Virus genome (UHGV): UHGV-0227332
DNA length: 17,123 bases
Origin: a virus
Direction: 5' to 3' (one strand)
Shown: in pieces, positions 560 through 11,168 of the stretch
How the letters are laid out: each line of letters begins with the position of its first letter
How positions within the stretch are numbered: the stretch's first letter is position 1
Notes under the pieces: generated by a model
The model's database searches: none
The model's input: only the letters and a program-made list of their open reading frames with translations
Told to the model about the DNA's origin: nothing
Made by a program: the position numbers and the translations under genes

Positions 560-1183
560 CTAACGTGTGACCGCATTCAAAATGTTGTCTGCGATTGACT
601 CTTCTTTGTGGCATTGCACCACCAGAGCGTCATACAGCGGCTTAACAGTGCGTGACCAGGTGGGTTGAGTAAGGTTTGGGATTAGCATCGTTACAGCGCG
701 ATATGCGGCGCTTGCTGGCATTCTTGAATAGCCGACTCCTTTGCATCTTCCGCACTCTTTCTCGACAACTCTCCCCCACTGCTCCGTTTTGGCTATATCA
801 ACCGCACGGCCTGTACCGTGGCAATCTCTGCATCTTGCCCCCGGCGTCGCGGCACTACGGCAATAATCCGCATAAGCGAATGTTGCGAGAACTTGCAGTA
901 CCTTTGCCTTAGTATTTCCTTCAAGCTTTGCCACACCACGGTATTTCCCCGATACCTTGTGTGCAAATTGCATCAGATAGTTGATAGCCTTTTGTTTGTC
1001 GTTCTGGCTGAGTTCGTGCTTACCACAGAATGCAGCCATTCCGAATCCGGCCTGTGATTGCGCCATCCCCATAGCAGCCATCACATCAGTACCGGAAAGA
1101 GAGTCAGAAGCCGTGGCCCGTGGTGAGTCGCTCATCATCGGGCTTTTTGGCGAATGAAATTTAGCTACGCTTTCGAGTCTCAT
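560..1183 (-). CDS. Q: Late antiterminator Q (lambda Q type), 207 aa
   Basis: Translation MRLESVAKFHSPKSP...CRDCHGTGRAVD...CGRCKGVGY is essentially lambda Q from memory, including the zinc-binding Cys cluster. It sits directly upstream of PR'/qut. Confidence 0.95.
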   Translation of the reverse strand: MRLESVAKFHSPKSPMMSDSPRATASDSLSGTDVMAAMGMAQSQAGFGMAAFCGKHELSQNDKQKAINYLMQFAHKVSGKYRGVAKLEGNTKAKVLQVLATFAYADYCRSAATPGARCRDCHGTGRAVDIAKTEQWGRVVEKECGRCKGVGYSRMPASAAYRAVTMLIPNLTQPTWSRTVKPLYDALVVQCHKEESIADNILNAVTR

Positions 1184-4595: not shown

Positions 4596-4671
4596 GATTC
4601 ACCCTCCCCCAAATAAAAAGGCCTGCGATTACCAGCAGGCCTGTTATTAGCTCAGTGATGTAGATGGTCAT

Positions 4672-6552
4672 TTAATACTCCGTCACGTTTTCCTGTCGCC
4701 ACGCCTCGTCATATTCCGATTTCGGCATATTGGCGATGTAGCTATATGGCGATCCTGATTCAAGTTGCAGGAACTGGTGCGATTGCTCGTCAAGGAACAA
4801 CGGGACGCCACCTTCCCAACCTTCGCCGTTACGTTGTTTTTCAAGCATCAAAACAGATGCCGGAGATGCCAGTAGCTGTTCGTCCTTCTCTGACATCTTT
4901 TCACCACTCTGAACTCTCTGTAACGCTCTCTCGCGAGCCTTGTTACGCCAGATGATGAAAAGGTTGTCTGTCAGGTCTGTTATCGCTCCAGAGCCTTTTA
5001 CGTCCATTTTCCCGGTTGGTTTTTCTTCGCTGTCTCCTTTTCGCGAGTGAGTAACGAGAATGACGTGGGAGTTTGTTTTGTTTTTGAAGTCGCAAATCGA
5101 GTCAACAAACGCCTTCTGCCCGTTATAGTCATCGTCGCCTATGCCACATTTCATCAGGCTGTCGATGATGAATAACTGGATACCGTATCGGCGGCGAGCG
5201 TAGTCGAATATTTCGATCAGCCTGTCGGCTTTCGCCGTTCCGGTCAGGCCAAACACCCAAAGTCTTTCGTCATAAAATTTAAATGCAGAGTCAATTTCCA
5301 GCACTGGCGGCATCTTGCAGCACGTCGCCTGACGGGTAAGGCGCTTAAGGAGAATACCAGGCTTCAGCTCAAGTGACGCGATGCACGTCTTCACACCCTG
5401 ACGCATTGCCTCAAGTGCCATATGCCCGACAACCTCCGTTTTTCCGTGACCGTTCACACCATTGACCAGCGTCAACTCTGCCTCACGGAACTGGAATTTA
5501 TCTGCCAGAGATTCCCACGGTGGATTAAACAGATACTGCTGCTTGCCGTAGAAAGCGTTGATAGTGTCCTGGTAAAACTCTCGCGCGCTGTAGAGTTCTT
5601 CAGGATCGAAGTAGGATGCCGTGCCGATGTACTGCCAGATTTCATCCTCGGTAACACCGTTCATCAGGCATTCGTTGATGTCTTTGTACGGCAGAGTAAC
5701 AAGACGGCAACGATGTTCACCGAGTCGGCTTGCGATTTCCCTTGCGGCTTCACGACCAACATCATCAACATCCATCGAGATGAATATTTCCTCAAACCTG
5801 TCGAGGTTGTGATACTCAAACTCAATCCACTGTTGCTTAGCGCCTTTCCCGCCACCAAACGGCACGGATAACGCCGAGATGCCGTATTGCGCATAGCTCA
5901 TACAATCAATTTCGCCTTCGCAAAGTACAACCGCCCTCACGCCAGCGTCCAGAGCCTGCCATCCGAACAGACAAGGTTCGCAATCACCTTCTGCCATAAT
6001 GACTTTCTTCCCGTCCGGGCGCTCAGTGCTGATTCGCTTTACCTGCAACAACTCACCATCGCGTTTGTACGGAATCACCAGAGCATCCAGTTCTCGCTCT
6101 CCATTCCACACCTTGCCGCTGACAACCTCGTAGCGCTTTACGATTTCTGGCGATATGCCACGCGATTGCAGGTACTCAAGATGGGATTCTGTTCTGGTAA
6201 CGTAGCGGGAGATTTTCTTGCGGTCAGGTCTGGAGAATTTCTTCTCACGTTTGGCATCGAAATGGTGATCGTCATCCTTGATTCCGAGAAAGGCTTTCGC
6301 TTCCTGCATAGCCTGATGCAGGTTAATTCCACGACATGCCATCCACAAATCAAGCATGTCACCGCCGTCTCCCTCAGCGAAATCAGCCCATTTTTTCTTG
6401 CCGCTAAGGTTGACCTTAAGGCTGTTTCCCTTGTCACCGTTGACGTTACCGGCAACCCACTCATGCCCCTCTTTCTTGCCGTTTGGCAACAGGTGCGGAG
6501 CCACCCTGTCAACCTGCGCCCAAAGCAGGTCACTGAGTTCACTTGGCGTCAT
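4672..6552 (-). CDS. Bifunctional DNA primase / replicative helicase (TOPRIM plus DnaB-like RecA-fold), 626 aa
   Basis: TOPRIM-like motifs (VLCEGEIDCMS; ISMDVDD). Walker A GVNGHGKT and Walker B-like LFIIDSL in the C-terminal half. Sits where lambda P would be, downstream of the initiator. Confidence 0.9.
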   Translation of the reverse strand: MTPSELSDLLWAQVDRVAPHLLPNGKKEGHEWVAGNVNGDKGNSLKVNLSGKKKWADFAEGDGGDMLDLWMACRGINLHQAMQEAKAFLGIKDDDHHFDAKREKKFSRPDRKKISRYVTRTESHLEYLQSRGISPEIVKRYEVVSGKVWNGERELDALVIPYKRDGELLQVKRISTERPDGKKVIMAEGDCEPCLFGWQALDAGVRAVVLCEGEIDCMSYAQYGISALSVPFGGGKGAKQQWIEFEYHNLDRFEEIFISMDVDDVGREAAREIASRLGEHRCRLVTLPYKDINECLMNGVTEDEIWQYIGTASYFDPEELYSAREFYQDTINAFYGKQQYLFNPPWESLADKFQFREAELTLVNGVNGHGKTEVVGHMALEAMRQGVKTCIASLELKPGILLKRLTRQATCCKMPPVLEIDSAFKFYDERLWVFGLTGTAKADRLIEIFDYARRRYGIQLFIIDSLMKCGIGDDDYNGQKAFVDSICDFKNKTNSHVILVTHSRKGDSEEKPTGKMDVKGSGAITDLTDNLFIIWRNKARERALQRVQSGEKMSEKDEQLLASPASVLMLEKQRNGEGWEGGVPLFLDEQSHQFLQLESGSPYSYIANMPKSEYDEAWRQENVTEY

Positions 6553-6656
6553 GATTCCCTCAGATTGAGATTTTTAAACCAGAAATCGACAAACGAAATA
6601 CTTAACCAGCCGTGGTTATAACCAGCGACCAGTAGCGATTTGATTTTTGATTTCAT
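6549..6656 (-). CDS. Possible 35-aa coupling ORF between initiator and primase-helicase
   Basis: ATG 3 nt after the initiator stop, with a GGTGA-like RBS. Its TGA overlaps the primase-helicase ATG (ATGA). Very short, so a weak call. Confidence 0.25.
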   Translation of the reverse strand: MKSKIKSLLVAGYNHGWLSISFVDFWFKNLNLRES

Positions 6657-6659
6657 GGT

Positions 6660-7520
6660 TCACCTGTCGAAAAACACGTAGCCAGTTTTCGATACGGTGA
6701 TTGCGGATGATGGTTTGGATTGTGGTTGAATAGTTTCTGGCTTCTCGTCGTTCCAGCGCTGACCGTTCAGGTAGCTCGATGGTAACAACCTGTCGAATCC
6801 GAACTGCTTACCATTCCTGCATGCGATGTCTTCTGCCAGCATCGTGGCAAACTCGCTTGCCGTACCCCTGGTAGTTTTACGCCATTCCCTGAACTGTGTT
6901 CTGAATGCCGAAGCTGCGTTTTTCTTCCCGGCCTTCCGCATGCCTGCACACCAGAATATTTCCTCGAATGCCTTGTCGGTTTCTTCGTGACGGTCAGGTG
7001 ATTTTTCACACTCCGTCCGAACACTTTCGGACATAGTGTTTTTATTATTTCTTTTTTCTTTTGTAATAGTTTCTTTTGTGTGTCCCTGTTTTGGTGACAG
7101 CGCTGTCACCGTTTTGGTGACACTTTTTGTCACCAATGCAGTGACATTATCACCAGAGTAGTGACACCCTTCGATTTGCCATTCCTCGATGTTCTTGTTA
7201 GGCCCGATTTGCTGGCCTTCGCGAAGGATAACCTTCATCGCGATAAGCTCATTCTTGGCCTTGTTTACCTTCTGTCTTGGCAGCCTGGTAATTTGAGCTA
7301 ACTGACTATCAGAGATGCGATCCATCTTTTTACCGTAGCCGTATGTTTTACGGCATATGGCGTGGGCAACCTTGCTCTGATTTTTCGTTAAATCTGCGCC
7401 GATAAGCTCTTCATACAGGGCATTTGCAAGACGGGTATAACCATCTTCAACTTCTGCCACACGACGCTCCACAGGCCGTTGTGAAGGCCTTAAATGTGTT
7501 ACGGTTGCAAGATTACTCAT
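6660..7520 (-). CDS. Replication initiator with lambda O-like N-terminal DNA-binding domain, 286 aa
   Basis: N-terminal [65 protein letters not shown] resembles the lambda O N-terminal domain. Iterons lie inside the gene. The C-terminal half is unlike lambda O. Confidence 0.85.
7033..7170. repeat. Origin-like element: AT-rich tract (7033-7080) next to four GGTGACA-type iterons (7093-7169)
   Basis: Perfect 18-bp palindrome GGTGACAGCGCTGTCACC (7093-7110), GGTGACACTTTTTGTCACC (7116-7134), and GTGACA repeats near 7141 and 7162, at roughly 20-23 bp spacing. The AT-rich block follows. Same architecture as ori-lambda inside O. Confidence 0.65.
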
Positions 7521-7659
7521 GACCTTTCTCCTTCTGCATCAGCTTCACTTTTTCCAACTCAGCCCGGAATCGACCAGGCTGCTTGAAGCTGGACAGGAAG
7601 CGATCACGTAGTATGTGTTTGTGAATTTTGTCCTGGTAAGGACTGAGTTGTTTTGTCAT
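7513..7659 (-). CDS. Small basic protein, 48 aa, between cII and the initiator
   Basis: ATG at 7659 preceded by AGGAG with 5-nt spacing. Translation [21 protein letters not shown]...; its stop overlaps the initiator start by 8 nt. The start region looks like the lambda O translation initiation region. Confidence 0.45.
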
Positions 7660-7691
7660 AATTACTCCTGTGGATTGATCCAGTAATGACC

Positions 7692-7985
7692 TCAGAATTC
7701 CATCTGGATTTGTTCAGAACGCTCGGTTGCCGCCGGGCGTTTTTTATTGGTGAGAATCGAAGCAACTTGTCGTGCCAATCGAGCCATGTCGTCGTCAACG
7801 ACACCCCATTCAAGAACAGCAAGCAGCATTGAGAACTTTGGAATCCAATCCCTCTTCCACCTGCTGATCTGCGACTTATCAACTCCCACAGCTTCCGCTG
7901 TCTTCTCAGTTCCAAGCATTGCGATTTTGTTAAGCAACGCACTCTCGATTCTTAGAGCCTCGTTGCGTTTGTTTGCACGAACCAT
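7692..7985 (-). CDS. cII: CII transcriptional activator (lambda type), 97 aa
   Basis: [75 protein letters not shown] matches lambda CII from memory. Internal Met chosen over the ORF-track start at 8072. Confidence 0.95.
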
Positions 7986-8043
7986 ATGTAAGTATTTCCT
8001 TAACAAATAAGAAGTTATGCGCATCAACTTATGCGCGTTGTAT

Positions 8044-8093: not shown

Positions 8094-8279
8094 TTATGCC
8101 GCTTTGCGGTAAGCGCTTTCTTGATACTTCAGGGCGCCAGCTGTAACGACTTCCAGTCGATAGGCGTCTTTCTCTGGGATGACTTCCTTCCACTGAGAGA
8201 CTGCTGCGTCGCTAATGCCTAACGCTTTAGCTACAGCACGCTGGGTTCCGAAGTGGTCGATAACATCTTTCTTGTACAT
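8094..8279 (-). CDS. cro: Cro repressor (P22 Cro type), 61 aa
   Basis: MYKKDVIDHFGTQRAVAKALGISDAAVSQWKEVIPEKDAYRLE... is near-identical to P22 Cro as I remember it. GGAG RBS; divergent from the repressor gene. Confidence 0.9.
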   Translation of the reverse strand: MYKKDVIDHFGTQRAVAKALGISDAAVSQWKEVIPEKDAYRLEVVTAGALKYQESAYRKAA

Positions 8280-8359: not shown

Positions 8360-9010
8360 ATGAAAACTCAATTGATGGGAGAGCGCATTCGCGCTCGGAG
8401 AAAAGAACTCAAGATCAGGCAGGCCGCACTTGGAAAGATGGTCGGCGTGTCTAATGTTGCCATATCTCAGTGGGAACGCTCTGAGACAGAGCCAAATGGA
8501 GAGAATCTTCTCGCCCTGGCTAATGCGTTGAAGTGTTCCCCTGACTATCTGATGAAAGGAGAGGAAAGTCTTTCAAACATTGCCTATCACAGTAGGCATG
8601 ATCCAAGAGGGTCATACCCTCTGATTAGCTGGGTGAGCGCAGGATGCTGGATGGAAGCTGTAGAACCATATCATAAGCGTGCAATAGATAACTGGTACGA
8701 TACAACCGTAGACTGTTCAGAAGATTCGTTTTGGTTGGACGTGAAGGGAGACTCAATGACGGCTCCGGCCGGTCTCAGTATCCCTGAAGGAATGATAATA
8801 CTCGTCGATCCTGAAGTAGAGCCGCGTAACGGGAAACTGGTAGTTGCAAAGCTCGAAGGAGAAAACGAGGCAACTTTCAAGAAGTTAGTTATTGATGCAG
8901 GCAGGAAGTTTCTAAAACCACTTAACCCACAATATCCGATGATCGAGATCAACGGAAACTGCAAAATCATCGGCGTAGTTGTCGATGCAAAACTAGCAAA
9001 CCTTCCATAA
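8360..9010 (+). CDS. c2: Prophage repressor, P22 C2-like (lambda CI analogue), 216 aa
   Basis: HTH N-terminal domain (QAALGKMVGVSNVAISQWERSE) and S24 peptidase-like C-terminal domain. Highly similar to P22 C2 from memory, same length. Confidence 0.95.
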   Translation: MKTQLMGERIRARRKELKIRQAALGKMVGVSNVAISQWERSETEPNGENLLALANALKCSPDYLMKGEESLSNIAYHSRHDPRGSYPLISWVSAGCWMEAVEPYHKRAIDNWYDTTVDCSEDSFWLDVKGDSMTAPAGLSIPEGMIILVDPEVEPRNGKLVVAKLEGENEATFKKLVIDAGRKFLKPLNPQYPMIEINGNCKIIGVVVDAKLANLP

Positions 9011-10067: not shown

Positions 10068-10160
10068 GCACCTATAGCAGATTTGCGAGTCTGCTATGTG
10101 AGCAATGTCGCTCGTAACTAAACAGGAGCCGACTTGTTCTGATTATTGGAAATCTTCTTT

Positions 10161-10187
10161 GCCCTCCAGTGTGAGGGCAATTTTTTT
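10161..10187 (+). terminator. Intrinsic terminator inside the PL operon (tL1-like)
   Basis: GCCCTC-CAGTGT-GAGGGC hairpin followed by AATTTTTTT, immediately upstream of the RBS of the next gene. Confidence 0.55.
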
Positions 10188-10199
10188 GACGGAGGATAT

Positions 10200-11168
10200 A
10201 TGAGTGAAGTAACAGATTTAGTTGTTATTGAAAAAGCAAATGCAATGACTGTATTTCAGTCTGCCGACCAGATTGAAGAAATCCTTCAAAAGGTTGAACG
10301 TGAAGTTATGTCCTTTGTGCCTGATATCACAACGGCAAAGGGCAGAAAGGAGATCGCTTCTCTGGCGTATAAAGTTGCGCAGACGAAAACATATCTCGAT
10401 GGTCTTGGAAAAGACCTTGTTGCTGAACTGAAGGAAATTCCAAAGCTAATTGATGCCAACCGCAAGACAGTGCGTGATCGCCTTGATGAGCTGAAATCCA
10501 AGGCACGCCAGCCTCTTACTGATTATGAGGAGGAACAGGCACGGATTAAAGCCGAAGAAGAAGCTAAGGCAGCAGCTGAAGCTCTCGCAAAGCAAATTGA
10601 GTCTGACCATGAAATAGCTATTTTGATGGATCGCGAATTTGACCGCCAAAGAGAAGAGGCAAGACTCAAAGCGGAGCAGGAAAAGCGAGAGCATGAAGAA
10701 CGCTTAAAAAGAGAAGCTGAAGAGAAAGCCAGAGCAGAAGCCGAAGCAAAGGCAAAAGCCGAAATTGAAGCAGCAGCAAGGCGAGAAGCAGAAGCTAAGG
10801 CCGCAGCGGAACGTGCAGAGCGTGAACGCATTGAAGCCGAGCAACGAGCACAGCGCGAAGCAAAAGAGGCAGCAGAACGAGCTGAAAGAGAAAAGCAGGC
10901 GGCAATTGAAGCAGAACGCCGAAAAGCACAGGAGGAGGATGAACGAATCCGGCGCGAGGCTGAAGCAAAAGAGCAAGCCAGAATAGCAGAAGAAAAAAGA
11001 ATCAAGGACGAAGAAGAGCGTAGAGCAAAGGATAAAGCTCACCGGAAAGAAGTAAATAACAAAATACTTGCTGACCTTATCAAGGTTGGCGCATCAGAAG
11101 ATGTTGCTAAAAATATCATAACAGCCATCGTAAAAGGCAAAGTATTCGCAACAAAAATAACCTACTAA
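10200..11168 (+). CDS. Hypothetical protein with long Glu/Ala/Lys/Arg-rich coiled-coil region, 322 aa
   Basis: ATG 5 nt after GGAGG. A globular N-terminal segment of about 110 aa, then roughly 170 aa of EAKA/ERAE-type heptad-like repeats, then a short hydrophobic C-terminus. The ORF-track start at 10146 lies inside the terminator. Confidence 0.7.
   Translation: MSEVTDLVVIEKANAMTVFQSADQIEEILQKVEREVMSFVPDITTAKGRKEIASLAYKVAQTKTYLDGLGKDLVAELKEIPKLIDANRKTVRDRLDELKSKARQPLTDYEEEQARIKAEEEAKAAAEALAKQIESDHEIAILMDREFDRQREEARLKAEQEKREHEERLKREAEEKARAEAEAKAKAEIEAAARREAEAKAAAERAERERIEAEQRAQREAKEAAERAEREKQAAIEAERRKAQEEDERIRREAEAKEQARIAEEKRIKDEEERRAKDKAHRKEVNNKILADLIKVGASEDVAKNIITAIVKGKVFATKITY

Follow-up and report, generated by a model that had tools for sequence, protein, structure and literature searches.

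An O-type initiator with in-gene iterons paired with a primase-helicase fusion in the replication module of a lambdoid phage

Background

In phage lambda the origin of replication (ori-lambda) lies inside the O gene and is formed by four dyad iterons, an A+T-rich element and an inverted repeat. The cassette is located after cII, and P is the protein carrying the host DnaB. P22 encodes an O-like initiator with in-gene repeats (gene 18) and a phage SF4 helicase rather than a DnaB loader (gene 12). T7 gp4 and mitochondrial Twinkle share a three-part architecture; the former carries a Cys4 zinc ribbon and belongs to a phage with its own polymerase and a transcription-activated origin. The zinc-binding domain of T7 gp4 is required for template-directed, sequence-specific priming. 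Metazoan Twinkle has no zinc ligands and is not a primase, and in the human protein the primase catalytic residues have been lost. P22 gp12 is the phage's own DnaB-type helicase and works with host DnaG (Wickner 1984, as cited in PMC8022706).

The pairing of an O-type initiator with a primase-helicase has also been described. The ES18 record (AY736146, 2005) marks the ori and an O homologue, lists gp60 with 35 aa and describes the primase-helicase as "putative primase/helicase; similar to phage T7 gene 4", and this module type is one of three found in P22-like phages (PMC10307801). The primase-helicase half is included in the Shiga-toxin phage type 'Eru5', whose defining feature is a pair of genes beside cI, for an HTH_36 protein and a primase; the replication proteins of Eru phages are reported as wholly unstudied, and the replication type is proposed to influence lysogen stability and hence virulence potential (PMC8951638). 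A literature search for experiments on the module type formed by O and the primase-helicase retrieved none, and this common module of lambdoid and Shiga-toxin phages is apparently without biochemical study.

Replication cassette and its relatives

The window, meaning the whole stretch of 17,123 nucleotides that was analysed (virus genome UHGV-0227332), contains a three-gene replication cassette on the minus strand. It is located after cII as in lambda, and the cII/oop region is 97% identical to that of lambda. An earlier note on this DNA had been made from the sequence alone; in an ORF check the coordinates of the three genes proved exact. The features of the cassette are the following:

6660-7520, minus strand, O-type replication initiator, 286 aa (ORF, Pfam and NCBIfam matches, identity to mEp043)
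6663-6998, minus strand, region encoding the C-terminal part of O, aa 175-286, with a helical core and a terminal tail (PHROG 33384)
6549-6656, minus strand, 35-codon gene, homologue of ES18 gp60 (ORF, match to PHROG 21848)
4672-6552, minus strand, bifunctional primase-helicase of the T7 gp4/Twinkle type, 626 aa (Pfam, phmmer against PDB, Foldseek)
4619-4642, minus strand, intrinsic-terminator-like hairpin, stem of 8 pairs (6 of them GC), then TTTTATTT

The hairpin is found 30 nt past the stop codon of the primase-helicase and probably marks the end of the cassette. No P- or DnaC-like loader was identified in the cassette by Pfam and PHROG comparison, and an Rfam scan of the window matched no family.

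The cassette is a lambdoid (pro)phage early-right module of the mEp043/Sf101 type, with the ES18 type as a relative. Both large proteins are known from phage mEp043 (JQ182734), with 100% identity for O and 99.5% for the primase-helicase; the DNA is 98-99% identical. The order initiator, 35-aa gene and primase-helicase is shared at high identity with mEp043, Sf101, ES18 (genes 59-60-61) and epsilon34 (genes 50-52). Identity to ES18 is 93.9% for the helicase and 94.6% for the C-terminal 129 aa of O, and the small protein agrees in 33 of its 35 residues. The difference lies in the N-terminus of O and in the iterons, being of lambda type in ES18 and epsilon34 and of mEp043 type in the window (N-terminal part 49% identical, iterons TGTCAC-N7-GTGACA). 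Among complete E. coli genomes the cassette was identified in 286 of 5426 (~5%). Plaque-forming carriers are mEp043, Sf101, ES18, epsilon34 and phi24B, and the reading of the locus as part of a defective prophage is rejected because identical cassettes are found among plaque-forming phages. The cassette is not new, since GenBank phages from 2005 and 2012 already carry it, and at the level of sequence it brings nothing beyond what is known.

Origin

The elements of the putative origin lie inside the O gene:

7081-7099, 7104-7122, 7128-7146 and 7148-7166, four 19-bp dyad iterons TGTCAC-N7-GTGACA with 0-1 mismatch each
7040-7080, A+T-rich tract, directly downstream of the iterons along O transcription, 85% A+T (7040-7079)
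7008-7039, inverted repeat adjoining the A+T-rich tract, 14-nt arms, 86% complementary

The iterons are spaced by 23, 24 and 20 bp. The dyad was matched 5 times against 0.58 expected, at least five matches being reached in none of 200 shuffles, and the word GGTGACA was counted 7 times against 1.76 expected; Tandem Repeats Finder did not detect the iterons. The four in-gene iterons announced by the earlier note are thus present, with limits other than the 7093-7169 it had given, the dyads spanning 7081-7166. The A+T-rich tract that it had placed at 7033-7080 is also found, with 81% A+T over these bounds. The coding strand of the tract, ACACAAAAGAAACTATTACAAAAGAAAAAAGAAA, is near-identical to the A+T-rich region of the lambda origin, and the tract is presumed to be the DNA-unwinding element. 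The inverted repeat forms the left edge of a block common to the window, ES18 and phi24B.

The lambda origin has the same layout, some four dyad iterons of ~19 bp within the initiator gene and then a tract rich in A+T with an inverted repeat beside it. The label 'non-lambda' which had been applied to the module is for this reason overstated, and it is equally at odds with the recognition of the module as a lambdoid type in the ES18 annotation and in PMC10307801. The differences from lambda are the iteron sequence, the unrelated C-terminus of O and the replacement of P by the 35-aa gene and the primase-helicase. The consensus TGTCAC-N7-GTGACA was also identified at the same place in the O gene of a Proteus prophage, while the O genes of ES18 and lambda have ATCCCTC-N5-GAGGGAT at the iteron site instead. 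Across the loci compared, the iteron type switches together with the type of O N-terminal domain, and the iterons are presumed to be the target of the N-terminal domain encoded by the same gene.

O-type initiator

The N-terminal part of O is 49% identical to residues 1-155 of lambda O (BLASTP). Pfam Phage_rep_O (PF04492) matches aa 20-114 (E 1.2e-37, 128.8 bits, cut-off 28.7) and NCBIfam phage_O_Nterm (TIGR01610) matches with E 1.7e-30 (105 bits, cut-off 45.5), both above their cut-offs and in agreement with the lambda O-like N-terminal domain proposed before. In the AF2 model this part contains a winged helix (46-107), followed by a low-confidence stretch (111-174) and by helices (179-258); this model and that of the primase-helicase are both modest in confidence, one with pLDDT 66 and the other with 57. 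A Foldseek search with the O model gave winged-helix matches that were all non-significant (E >= 0.1), and a PDB sequence search with O gave no match. The winged-helix domain is a homologue of that of lambda O, presumably with a specificity of its own, and the iterons and the A+T-rich tract double as the coding sequence of the disordered linker.

The C-terminal half is different from that of lambda O, as had been claimed, with no significant similarity past residue 157 in BLASTP. An HMM of this part gave E 0.95 on lambda O, and the P-binding C-terminus of lambda type was not recognised. No similarity was found to the C-terminus of P22 gp18 either. The region matches PHROG 33384. In Pfam at E up to 10 no match was obtained for the C-terminus of O, the N-terminus of the helicase or the 35-aa protein; NCBIfam gave none for the 35-aa protein or for proteins with related C-terminal domains, and a word-index search that used the C-terminus of O as query brought up truncated proteins for the most part.

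The same C-terminus is found in other contexts. In ES18 gp59, where both the N-terminus and the iterons are of lambda type, it is 94.6% identical, and the figure is the same for phi24B O, whose HTH N-terminus is unrelated; some E. coli proteins also have a lambda-type N-terminus fused to it. By sequence, O is a chimera whose C-terminal part occurs behind three different origin-binding N-termini. This part has no relation to the P-binding region of lambda O and is co-inherited with the 35-aa gene and the primase-helicase.

The possibility that the helical core of the C-terminal part is a specific docking domain for the primase-helicase is weakened by loci where one is present without the other. 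The core is found in Vibrio phage D59, where no primase-helicase is annotated downstream, and at two loci (L010 and L013) the helicase is paired with a different initiator core. In PVA1, a sparsely annotated record, the core is followed by a 1.4-kb unannotated gap. The proteins upstream of some distant helicases match the core motif weakly (E 4e-7 to 1e-3).

Primase-helicase

The 626-aa protein comprises an N-terminal domain (aa 1 to ~95), a primase RNA-polymerase/TOPRIM domain (~110-320) and an SF4 helicase domain (~345-600). Pfam identified Toprim_2 at aa 209-296 (E 3e-12) and AAA_25/DnaB_C at aa 355-594, the AAA_25 match being just above its cut-off (27.9 bits, cut-off 27) and the DnaB_C match under it (23.9 bits, cut-off 27). 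The protein matched T7 gp4 (E 2.7e-23) and Twinkle (E 6e-14) by phmmer against PDB, and Twinkle (E 8e-21), gp4 (E 5e-19) and Aquifex DnaG (E 2e-11) by Foldseek, the fold also matching DnaB. These matches bear out the earlier proposal of a TOPRIM and DnaB-like fusion in place of P. Compared with the T7 system, the window contains no phage polymerase and has an O-type initiator; unlike P22 gp12, a helicase only, the enzyme carries a DnaG-type primase domain in the same polypeptide.

The TOPRIM ligands E212, D261, D263 and D291 are present and align with E157, D207, D209 and D237 of gp4. The helicase domain has K371, D464, H502, R536 and R574, of which K371, D464, H502 and R574 cover the elements of a DnaB-like RecA core (Walker A, Walker B, the histidine of motif H3 and the arginine finger). 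In relatives of 34-99% identity these catalytic residues vary little or not at all. The full set of TOPRIM and SF4 catalytic residues is kept, next to a zinc-less N-terminal domain of DnaG type.

The first 110 residues contain a single cysteine (C73), bearing out the statement that the Cys4 pattern is lacking, and no conserved Cys4 was found among 126 relatives. The NCBIfam dnaG model (TIGR01391) matches aa 26-143 with E 1.3e-9, far under its whole-protein cut-off, and structure prediction gives a beta-sheet plus helices for the N-terminal domain. The lack of zinc ligands is a trait of the whole family, shared with metazoan Twinkle, in a domain that is by its profile match homologous to the DnaG N-terminus. 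Across the family this domain ranks with the most strongly conserved portions of the protein, which argues for a retained function. However, with the Cys4 absent and with the precedents of T7 gp4 and Twinkle, primase activity is not assured.

Proposed mechanism and host dependence

The explanation held to be probable for the locus as a whole is a chimeric O acting on a lambda-like origin in the service of a phage primase-helicase. As in lambda, O dimers would occupy the iterons and melt the A+T-rich tract. The primase-helicase hexamer would be recruited onto the opened DNA by the C-terminal part of O, perhaps chiefly through the terminal tail of O and perhaps with the help of the 35-aa protein, at the step where lambda uses P carrying host DnaB. 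The enzyme would then unwind in the 5'-3' direction and prime for the host Pol III holoenzyme, and the ATGA overlap would tie helicase translation to that of the small protein. Since the phage enzyme would both unwind and prime, DnaB and DnaC would be bypassed and DnaG probably too. The replication independent of host DnaB and DnaG suggested by the earlier note is a reasonable inference, independence from DnaG being its weaker half because T7 gp4 needs the zinc-binding domain to prime. Taken together, the observation that the note reported is confirmed and its interpretation partly supported.

Unlikely, yet with a precedent in the P22 gp12 that works with host DnaG (cited in PMC8022706), is a mode where the 626-aa protein is only a helicase, its primase half being inactive or structural and host DnaG providing the primers. 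The family-wide absence of the N-terminal Cys4 would fit such a mode. Priming is also lacking in T7 gp4 deprived of its zinc-binding domain and in metazoan Twinkle. The near-invariance of E212, D261, D263 and D291 down to 34% identity points the other way, as does the strong conservation of the zinc-less domain; human Twinkle, by contrast, has lost its TOPRIM acidic residues. Far less probable is that host DnaB, loaded somehow by O, is the fork helicase and the phage enzyme an accessory, for example in late rolling-circle or recombination-dependent replication. An O homologue with neither helicase nor loader is encoded by 34 of 314 lambdoid phages, about a tenth (PMC12315714), so that an O-type protein can presumably work with host factors alone, and the O C-terminal core of Vibrio phage D59, with no primase-helicase annotated downstream, points the same way. 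Against this, the helicase gene always comes right after the initiator, and its translation is coupled to that of the initiator or of the small ORF, which persists in relatives of 34-50% identity, and the cassette lacks a P- or DnaC-like loader.

The 35-codon gene can likewise be read in two ways, as a translated spacer that brings ribosomes to the helicase start and encodes a functionless peptide, or as a gene for a working protein. The stop codon of the ORF overlaps the primase-helicase start in ATGA, and in all loci compared the ORF abuts or overlaps the start of the helicase. Among helicase relatives below ~60% identity it is absent and the initiator itself overlaps the helicase start; PGAP leaves the ORF unannotated. 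All of this would suit a spacer, which is nevertheless rather doubtful, given that all 11 fully read copies are 35 codons long, that residues are conserved (MK..(I/L)K..L(I/V).GY..G...........F......L) with synonymous sites near saturation, and that dN/dS is about 0.1-0.3 (pS 0.45-0.87 against pN 0.17-0.29). In addition, the peptide variants co-vary with variants of the initiator tail, and one locus (L047) has a weakly similar 35-aa ORF at a different place, upstream of the initiator. The coupling described by the earlier note holds at the side of the primase-helicase and not at that of O, where the ATG is found 3 nt past the O stop and is preceded by a Shine-Dalgarno-like AGGTGA.

Small protein and exchange of origin-binding domains

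The 35-codon gene was identified directly upstream of the helicase in all 17 of the compared loci with a helicase at least 60% identical. Its substitution pattern marks it as a real gene under purifying selection, limited to the enterobacterial clade of the helicase. A tentative extension, with perhaps a modest chance of being right, is that the 35-aa protein and the initiator tail form a minimal dedicated loader or adaptor and that the zinc-less enzyme, a member of a very large family in which no zinc finger occurs, is a fully active primase. If true, a T7-type primase-helicase would be placed on a lambda-type origin by a tiny adaptor, DnaG-type priming would occur without a zinc ribbon, and Twinkle-like enzymes would gain a simple bacterial model. 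The module contains a tiny conserved protein and a primase domain, zinc-less and otherwise intact, that bears on the working of Twinkle-type enzymes; human Twinkle has lost the primase residues that the window protein keeps.

The module is also a natural domain-swap experiment, with one helicase-side unit combined with at least three origin-binding domains. The Eru5 unit (Stx2a_F403, phi24B and Min27) shares with the window the C-terminus of O, the small ORF and the primase-helicase at 96-99% identity. Its initiator begins with an unrelated HTH_36-type domain and is associated with other repeats, whereas the initiator of the window is O-type at its N-terminus. The helicase gene of Eru5 also differs in that a LAGLIDADG intein of 342 aa sits within its Walker A loop.

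The replication cassette and its prior description

The replication cassette of the window is already known. Over 3.1 kb it shares 98-99% identity with phages mEp043, Sf101 and vB_EcoP-720R6 (mEp043 has an O that is 100% and a helicase that is 99.5% identical), and it is carried by 286 of the 5426 complete E. coli genomes. In the GenBank record of phage ES18, gp59 is 'similar to phage lambda gpO', the rep_origin 'similar to lambda ori', gp60 follows, and gp61 is a 'putative primase/helicase; similar to phage T7 gene 4'. The ES18 replication region is mentioned in the epsilon34 paper (PMC2629481), and the ES18 combination, an O homologue with a primase-helicase, is counted among three types of replication module listed for P22-like phages (PMC10307801, 2023). 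In Stx phages the helicase-side unit belongs to 'Eru5' (PMC8951638). A literature search found no experimental study of the O plus primase-helicase module.

As a whole, the window is the stretch of a lambdoid (pro)phage comprising its immunity and early region; its features are:

8360-9010 (+): cI
(+): early-left genes including RecT
8094-8279 (-): cro, heading the minus-strand series in transcription order
(-): lambda-type cII, after cro
7513-7659 (-): 48-aa DUF2740 ORF, between cII and O
6660-7520 (-): O-type initiator, 286 aa
7081-7099, 7104-7122, 7128-7146, 7148-7166: four iterons, 0-1 mismatch each
7040-7079: A+T tract (85% A+T), next to the iterons in the direction of O transcription
7008-7039: 14-nt inverted repeat, after the A+T tract in the same direction
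6549-6656 (-): 35-codon ORF, between O and the large gene
4672-6552 (-): 626-aa protein
4619-4642 (-): strong terminator-like hairpin, six GC pairs then TTTTATTT, 30 nt past the primase-helicase stop
(-): nin-region genes NinB, antirepressor, YbcO and RusA, after the 626-aa gene
560-1183 (-): Q, last of the minus-strand series

The earlier note had described 4672-7520 as a non-lambda module replicating independently of host DnaB and DnaG. Its ORF coordinates are exact and the observation itself is confirmed; the interpretation is upheld in part.

The primase-helicase

The 626-aa protein is the fusion of TOPRIM and DnaB-like domains that had been proposed. Pfam identified Toprim_2 (aa 209-296) and AAA_25 (aa 357-507), with DnaB_C at aa 355-594 scoring 23.9 bits, under the cut-off of 27. 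In sequence comparisons its residues 192-539 align with 138-507 of T7 gp4 (E 2.7e-23), and Twinkle is a further match (E 6e-14). Foldseek with the AF2 model (mean pLDDT 66; residues 1-90 at 70-87) retrieved human Twinkle (E 8e-21), T7 gp4 (E 5e-19) and the zinc-binding and RNA-polymerase domains of Aquifex DnaG (E 2e-11). TOPRIM residues E212, D261, D263 and D291 correspond to gp4 E157, D207, D209 and D237, and the helicase keeps Walker A K371, Walker B D464, H502 and arginines R536 and R574; these catalytic residues are invariant or nearly so among relatives down to 34% identity. The family comprises 855 clusters (50% identity) at E <1e-30, and phages have repeatedly adopted the fusion of DnaG-type primase with SF4 helicase (PMC4889955).

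The Cys4 pattern is missing from the N-terminus as the earlier note stated, the first 95 residues holding a single cysteine. This domain is predicted by the AF2 model as a small beta-sheet followed by helices, and the N-terminal part of the DnaG model TIGR01391 matches aa 26-143 (E 1.3e-9, far below the model's whole-protein cut-off). The motif LLPxGKxxGxEWxxGSxxGExGxSLKVxLxGxKxWxDFAxGxxGDLxDLW runs through 126 full-length relatives (35-62% identity), across which a conserved Cys4 is absent from it. The zinc-less domain is a family-wide state and not a peculiarity of the window.

In phi24B ('P', L003 1996-4902), Min27 and Stx2a phages the window-type primase-helicase (96-99% identical) carries after Walker A K371 an intein, 342 aa long and containing Hint and LAGLIDADG homing-endonuclease domains. 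No intein interrupts the window allele. In several distant relatives, 900-1050 aa long, a split falls at this same Walker A position.

The initiator and its origin

The O-like N-terminus is well supported, residues 1-157 matching Phage_rep_O (E 1e-37) and being 49% identical to lambda O. Similarity to lambda O ends at residue 157, in agreement with the divergent C-terminal half noted earlier; a profile of this part gave E 0.95 with lambda O and 0.92 with P22 gp18. The C-terminal part, for which neither a Pfam family nor a significant fold match was found, is taken in by PHROG 33384. It consists of a helical core (helices 179-258 in the AF2 model, pLDDT ~80) and a terminal tail. Over the C-terminal 129 residues, identity is 94.6% with ES18 gp59, whose N-terminus is lambda-type, and equally with the 'O' of phi24B, whose N-terminus is an unrelated HTH type and whose repeats differ from the window iterons. 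Lambda-type N-termini are also joined to the window-type C-terminus in E. coli prophages, and the block common to these genes starts at the inverted repeat just beyond the A+T-rich tract. The O of the window is a chimera.

The four in-gene iterons are as claimed, but their unit is the 19-bp dyad TGTCAC-N7-GTGACA rather than the GGTGACA 7-mer. Five dyad matches occur in the window versus 0.58 expected, a count reached by 0 of 200 shuffles. The lambda iterons lie at the same gene codons with a different sequence, and the A+T-rich element is nearly the same (ACACAAAAGAAACTATTACAAAAGAAAAAAGAAA in the window, ACACAAAAGACACTATTACAAAAGAAAAAAGAAAAG in lambda); therefore the origin is lambda-like in all but specificity. 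A Proteus prophage, with an O 64% identical, has TGTCAC-type repeats as in the window, whereas ES18 combines the lambda-type N-terminus with lambda-type ATCCCTC-N5-GAGGGAT repeats. Across the loci compared, iteron type follows N-terminal domain type. The ori-encoded residues 111-174 are modelled (AF2) as a low-confidence linker joining two folded parts.

Within the primase-helicase gene, towards its 5' end, lie two more exact GGTGACA half-sites (6357-6363 and 6432-6438, -) and one 2-mismatch 19-mer (6432-6450), which could be fortuitous or weak additional sites for O.

The 35-codon gene

Judged by its sequence, the 35-codon ORF is a real gene. The ATGA coupling holds at the primase-helicase start, which its stop overlaps; on the O side its ATG stands 3 nt past the stop, with AGGTGA in front. 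It corresponds to PHROG 21848 and ES18 gp60, and the PGAP annotation of RefSeq E. coli genomes omits it. With a profile of the peptide, a copy was located immediately 5' of the helicase gene in 17 of 17 loci (E. coli, Salmonella, Proteus, Xenorhabdus and viral contigs) whose helicase identity is 60% or more. All 11 fully read copies have exactly 35 codons and align without gaps, with pS 0.45-0.87 versus pN 0.17-0.29 (dN/dS ~0.1-0.3).

The ORF was not found in relatives with helicases 34-50% identical, where the helicase start overlaps the stop of an initiator-like protein of 240-385 aa with a variable N-terminus (HTH_36, DUF1376 or without Pfam match). In the viral contig L047 (2504-3501; helicase 50% identical) the order is a weakly similar 35-aa ORF (E 8e-5), a 182-aa winged-helix protein, a 96-aa protein carrying the O C-terminal-core motif as a separate gene, and the helicase; therefore the cassette parts look separable. 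In the Fraca/L014 type a different tail (AEVFI.Q.AIDRM.RG..RP) comes with a different peptide variant and a helicase of only 60% identity. The 35-aa variant goes together with the initiator tail, a pairing that linkage alone could explain.

Helicase recruitment and proposed mechanism

The O C-terminal core as helicase docking site is only partly supported. O-like initiators with a core ~44% identical occur in Vibrio phage D59 (L088 2626-3420), with no primase-helicase, helicase or loader annotated downstream, and in PVA1 (L090 2692-3477), followed by a 1.4-kb unannotated gap, too short for the 1.9-kb gene, in a sparsely annotated record. Both are possible members of the 'O only' class among lambdoid replication modules, reported as not understood (PMC12315714). 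In two further loci (L010 and L013) the helicase and small ORF stand behind initiators with a different core and the same tail. Thus the tail and the 35-aa protein would be better docking candidates than the core.

By analogy with lambda and P22, O would most likely assemble on the iterons and open the A+T-rich tract. Its C-terminal end, perhaps assisted by the 35-aa protein, would then bring the phage primase-helicase, replacing P carrying DnaB, and this enzyme would unwind the DNA and prime for host Pol III. The precedent is P22, in which DnaB is replaced and DnaG kept (Wickner 1984, cited in PMC8022706). Bypass of DnaG would depend on the zinc-less domain being able to support priming. In favour of an active primase are the fully retained TOPRIM ligands and the strongly conserved N-terminal domain; caution is counselled by how T7 gp4 without its zinc domain and metazoan Twinkle behave.

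Flanking features

The hairpin at 4619-4642 (-) is reminiscent in its position of lambda tR2 at the beginning of the nin region. At 7652-8002 (both strands) the window is 97% identical to cII and oop antisense RNA of lambda; this stretch includes an oop-like RNA (~7670-7748, +) and the oop terminator hairpin (7716-7743). For cII, the 97-aa protein of lambda length (7692-7985) is probably the true product rather than the listed 126-aa ORF. Lambda similarity breaks off precisely at the start codon of lambda O; the DUF2740 ORF begins there instead, making a sharp mosaic joint. This ORF has an 8-nt overlap with the start of O and is also found upstream of P22 gene 18 (as ORF48) and of mEp043 O. 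Its family is labelled 'tail protein' in RefSeq and PHROG, which looks mislabelled because the ORF sits in the early-right operon. Finally, a 340-aa ORF of the early-left region (10146-11168, +), without Pfam match, contains a long Glu/Ala/Lys/Arg-rich, coiled-coil-like stretch that gives rise to an A-over-T skew of up to 0.66.
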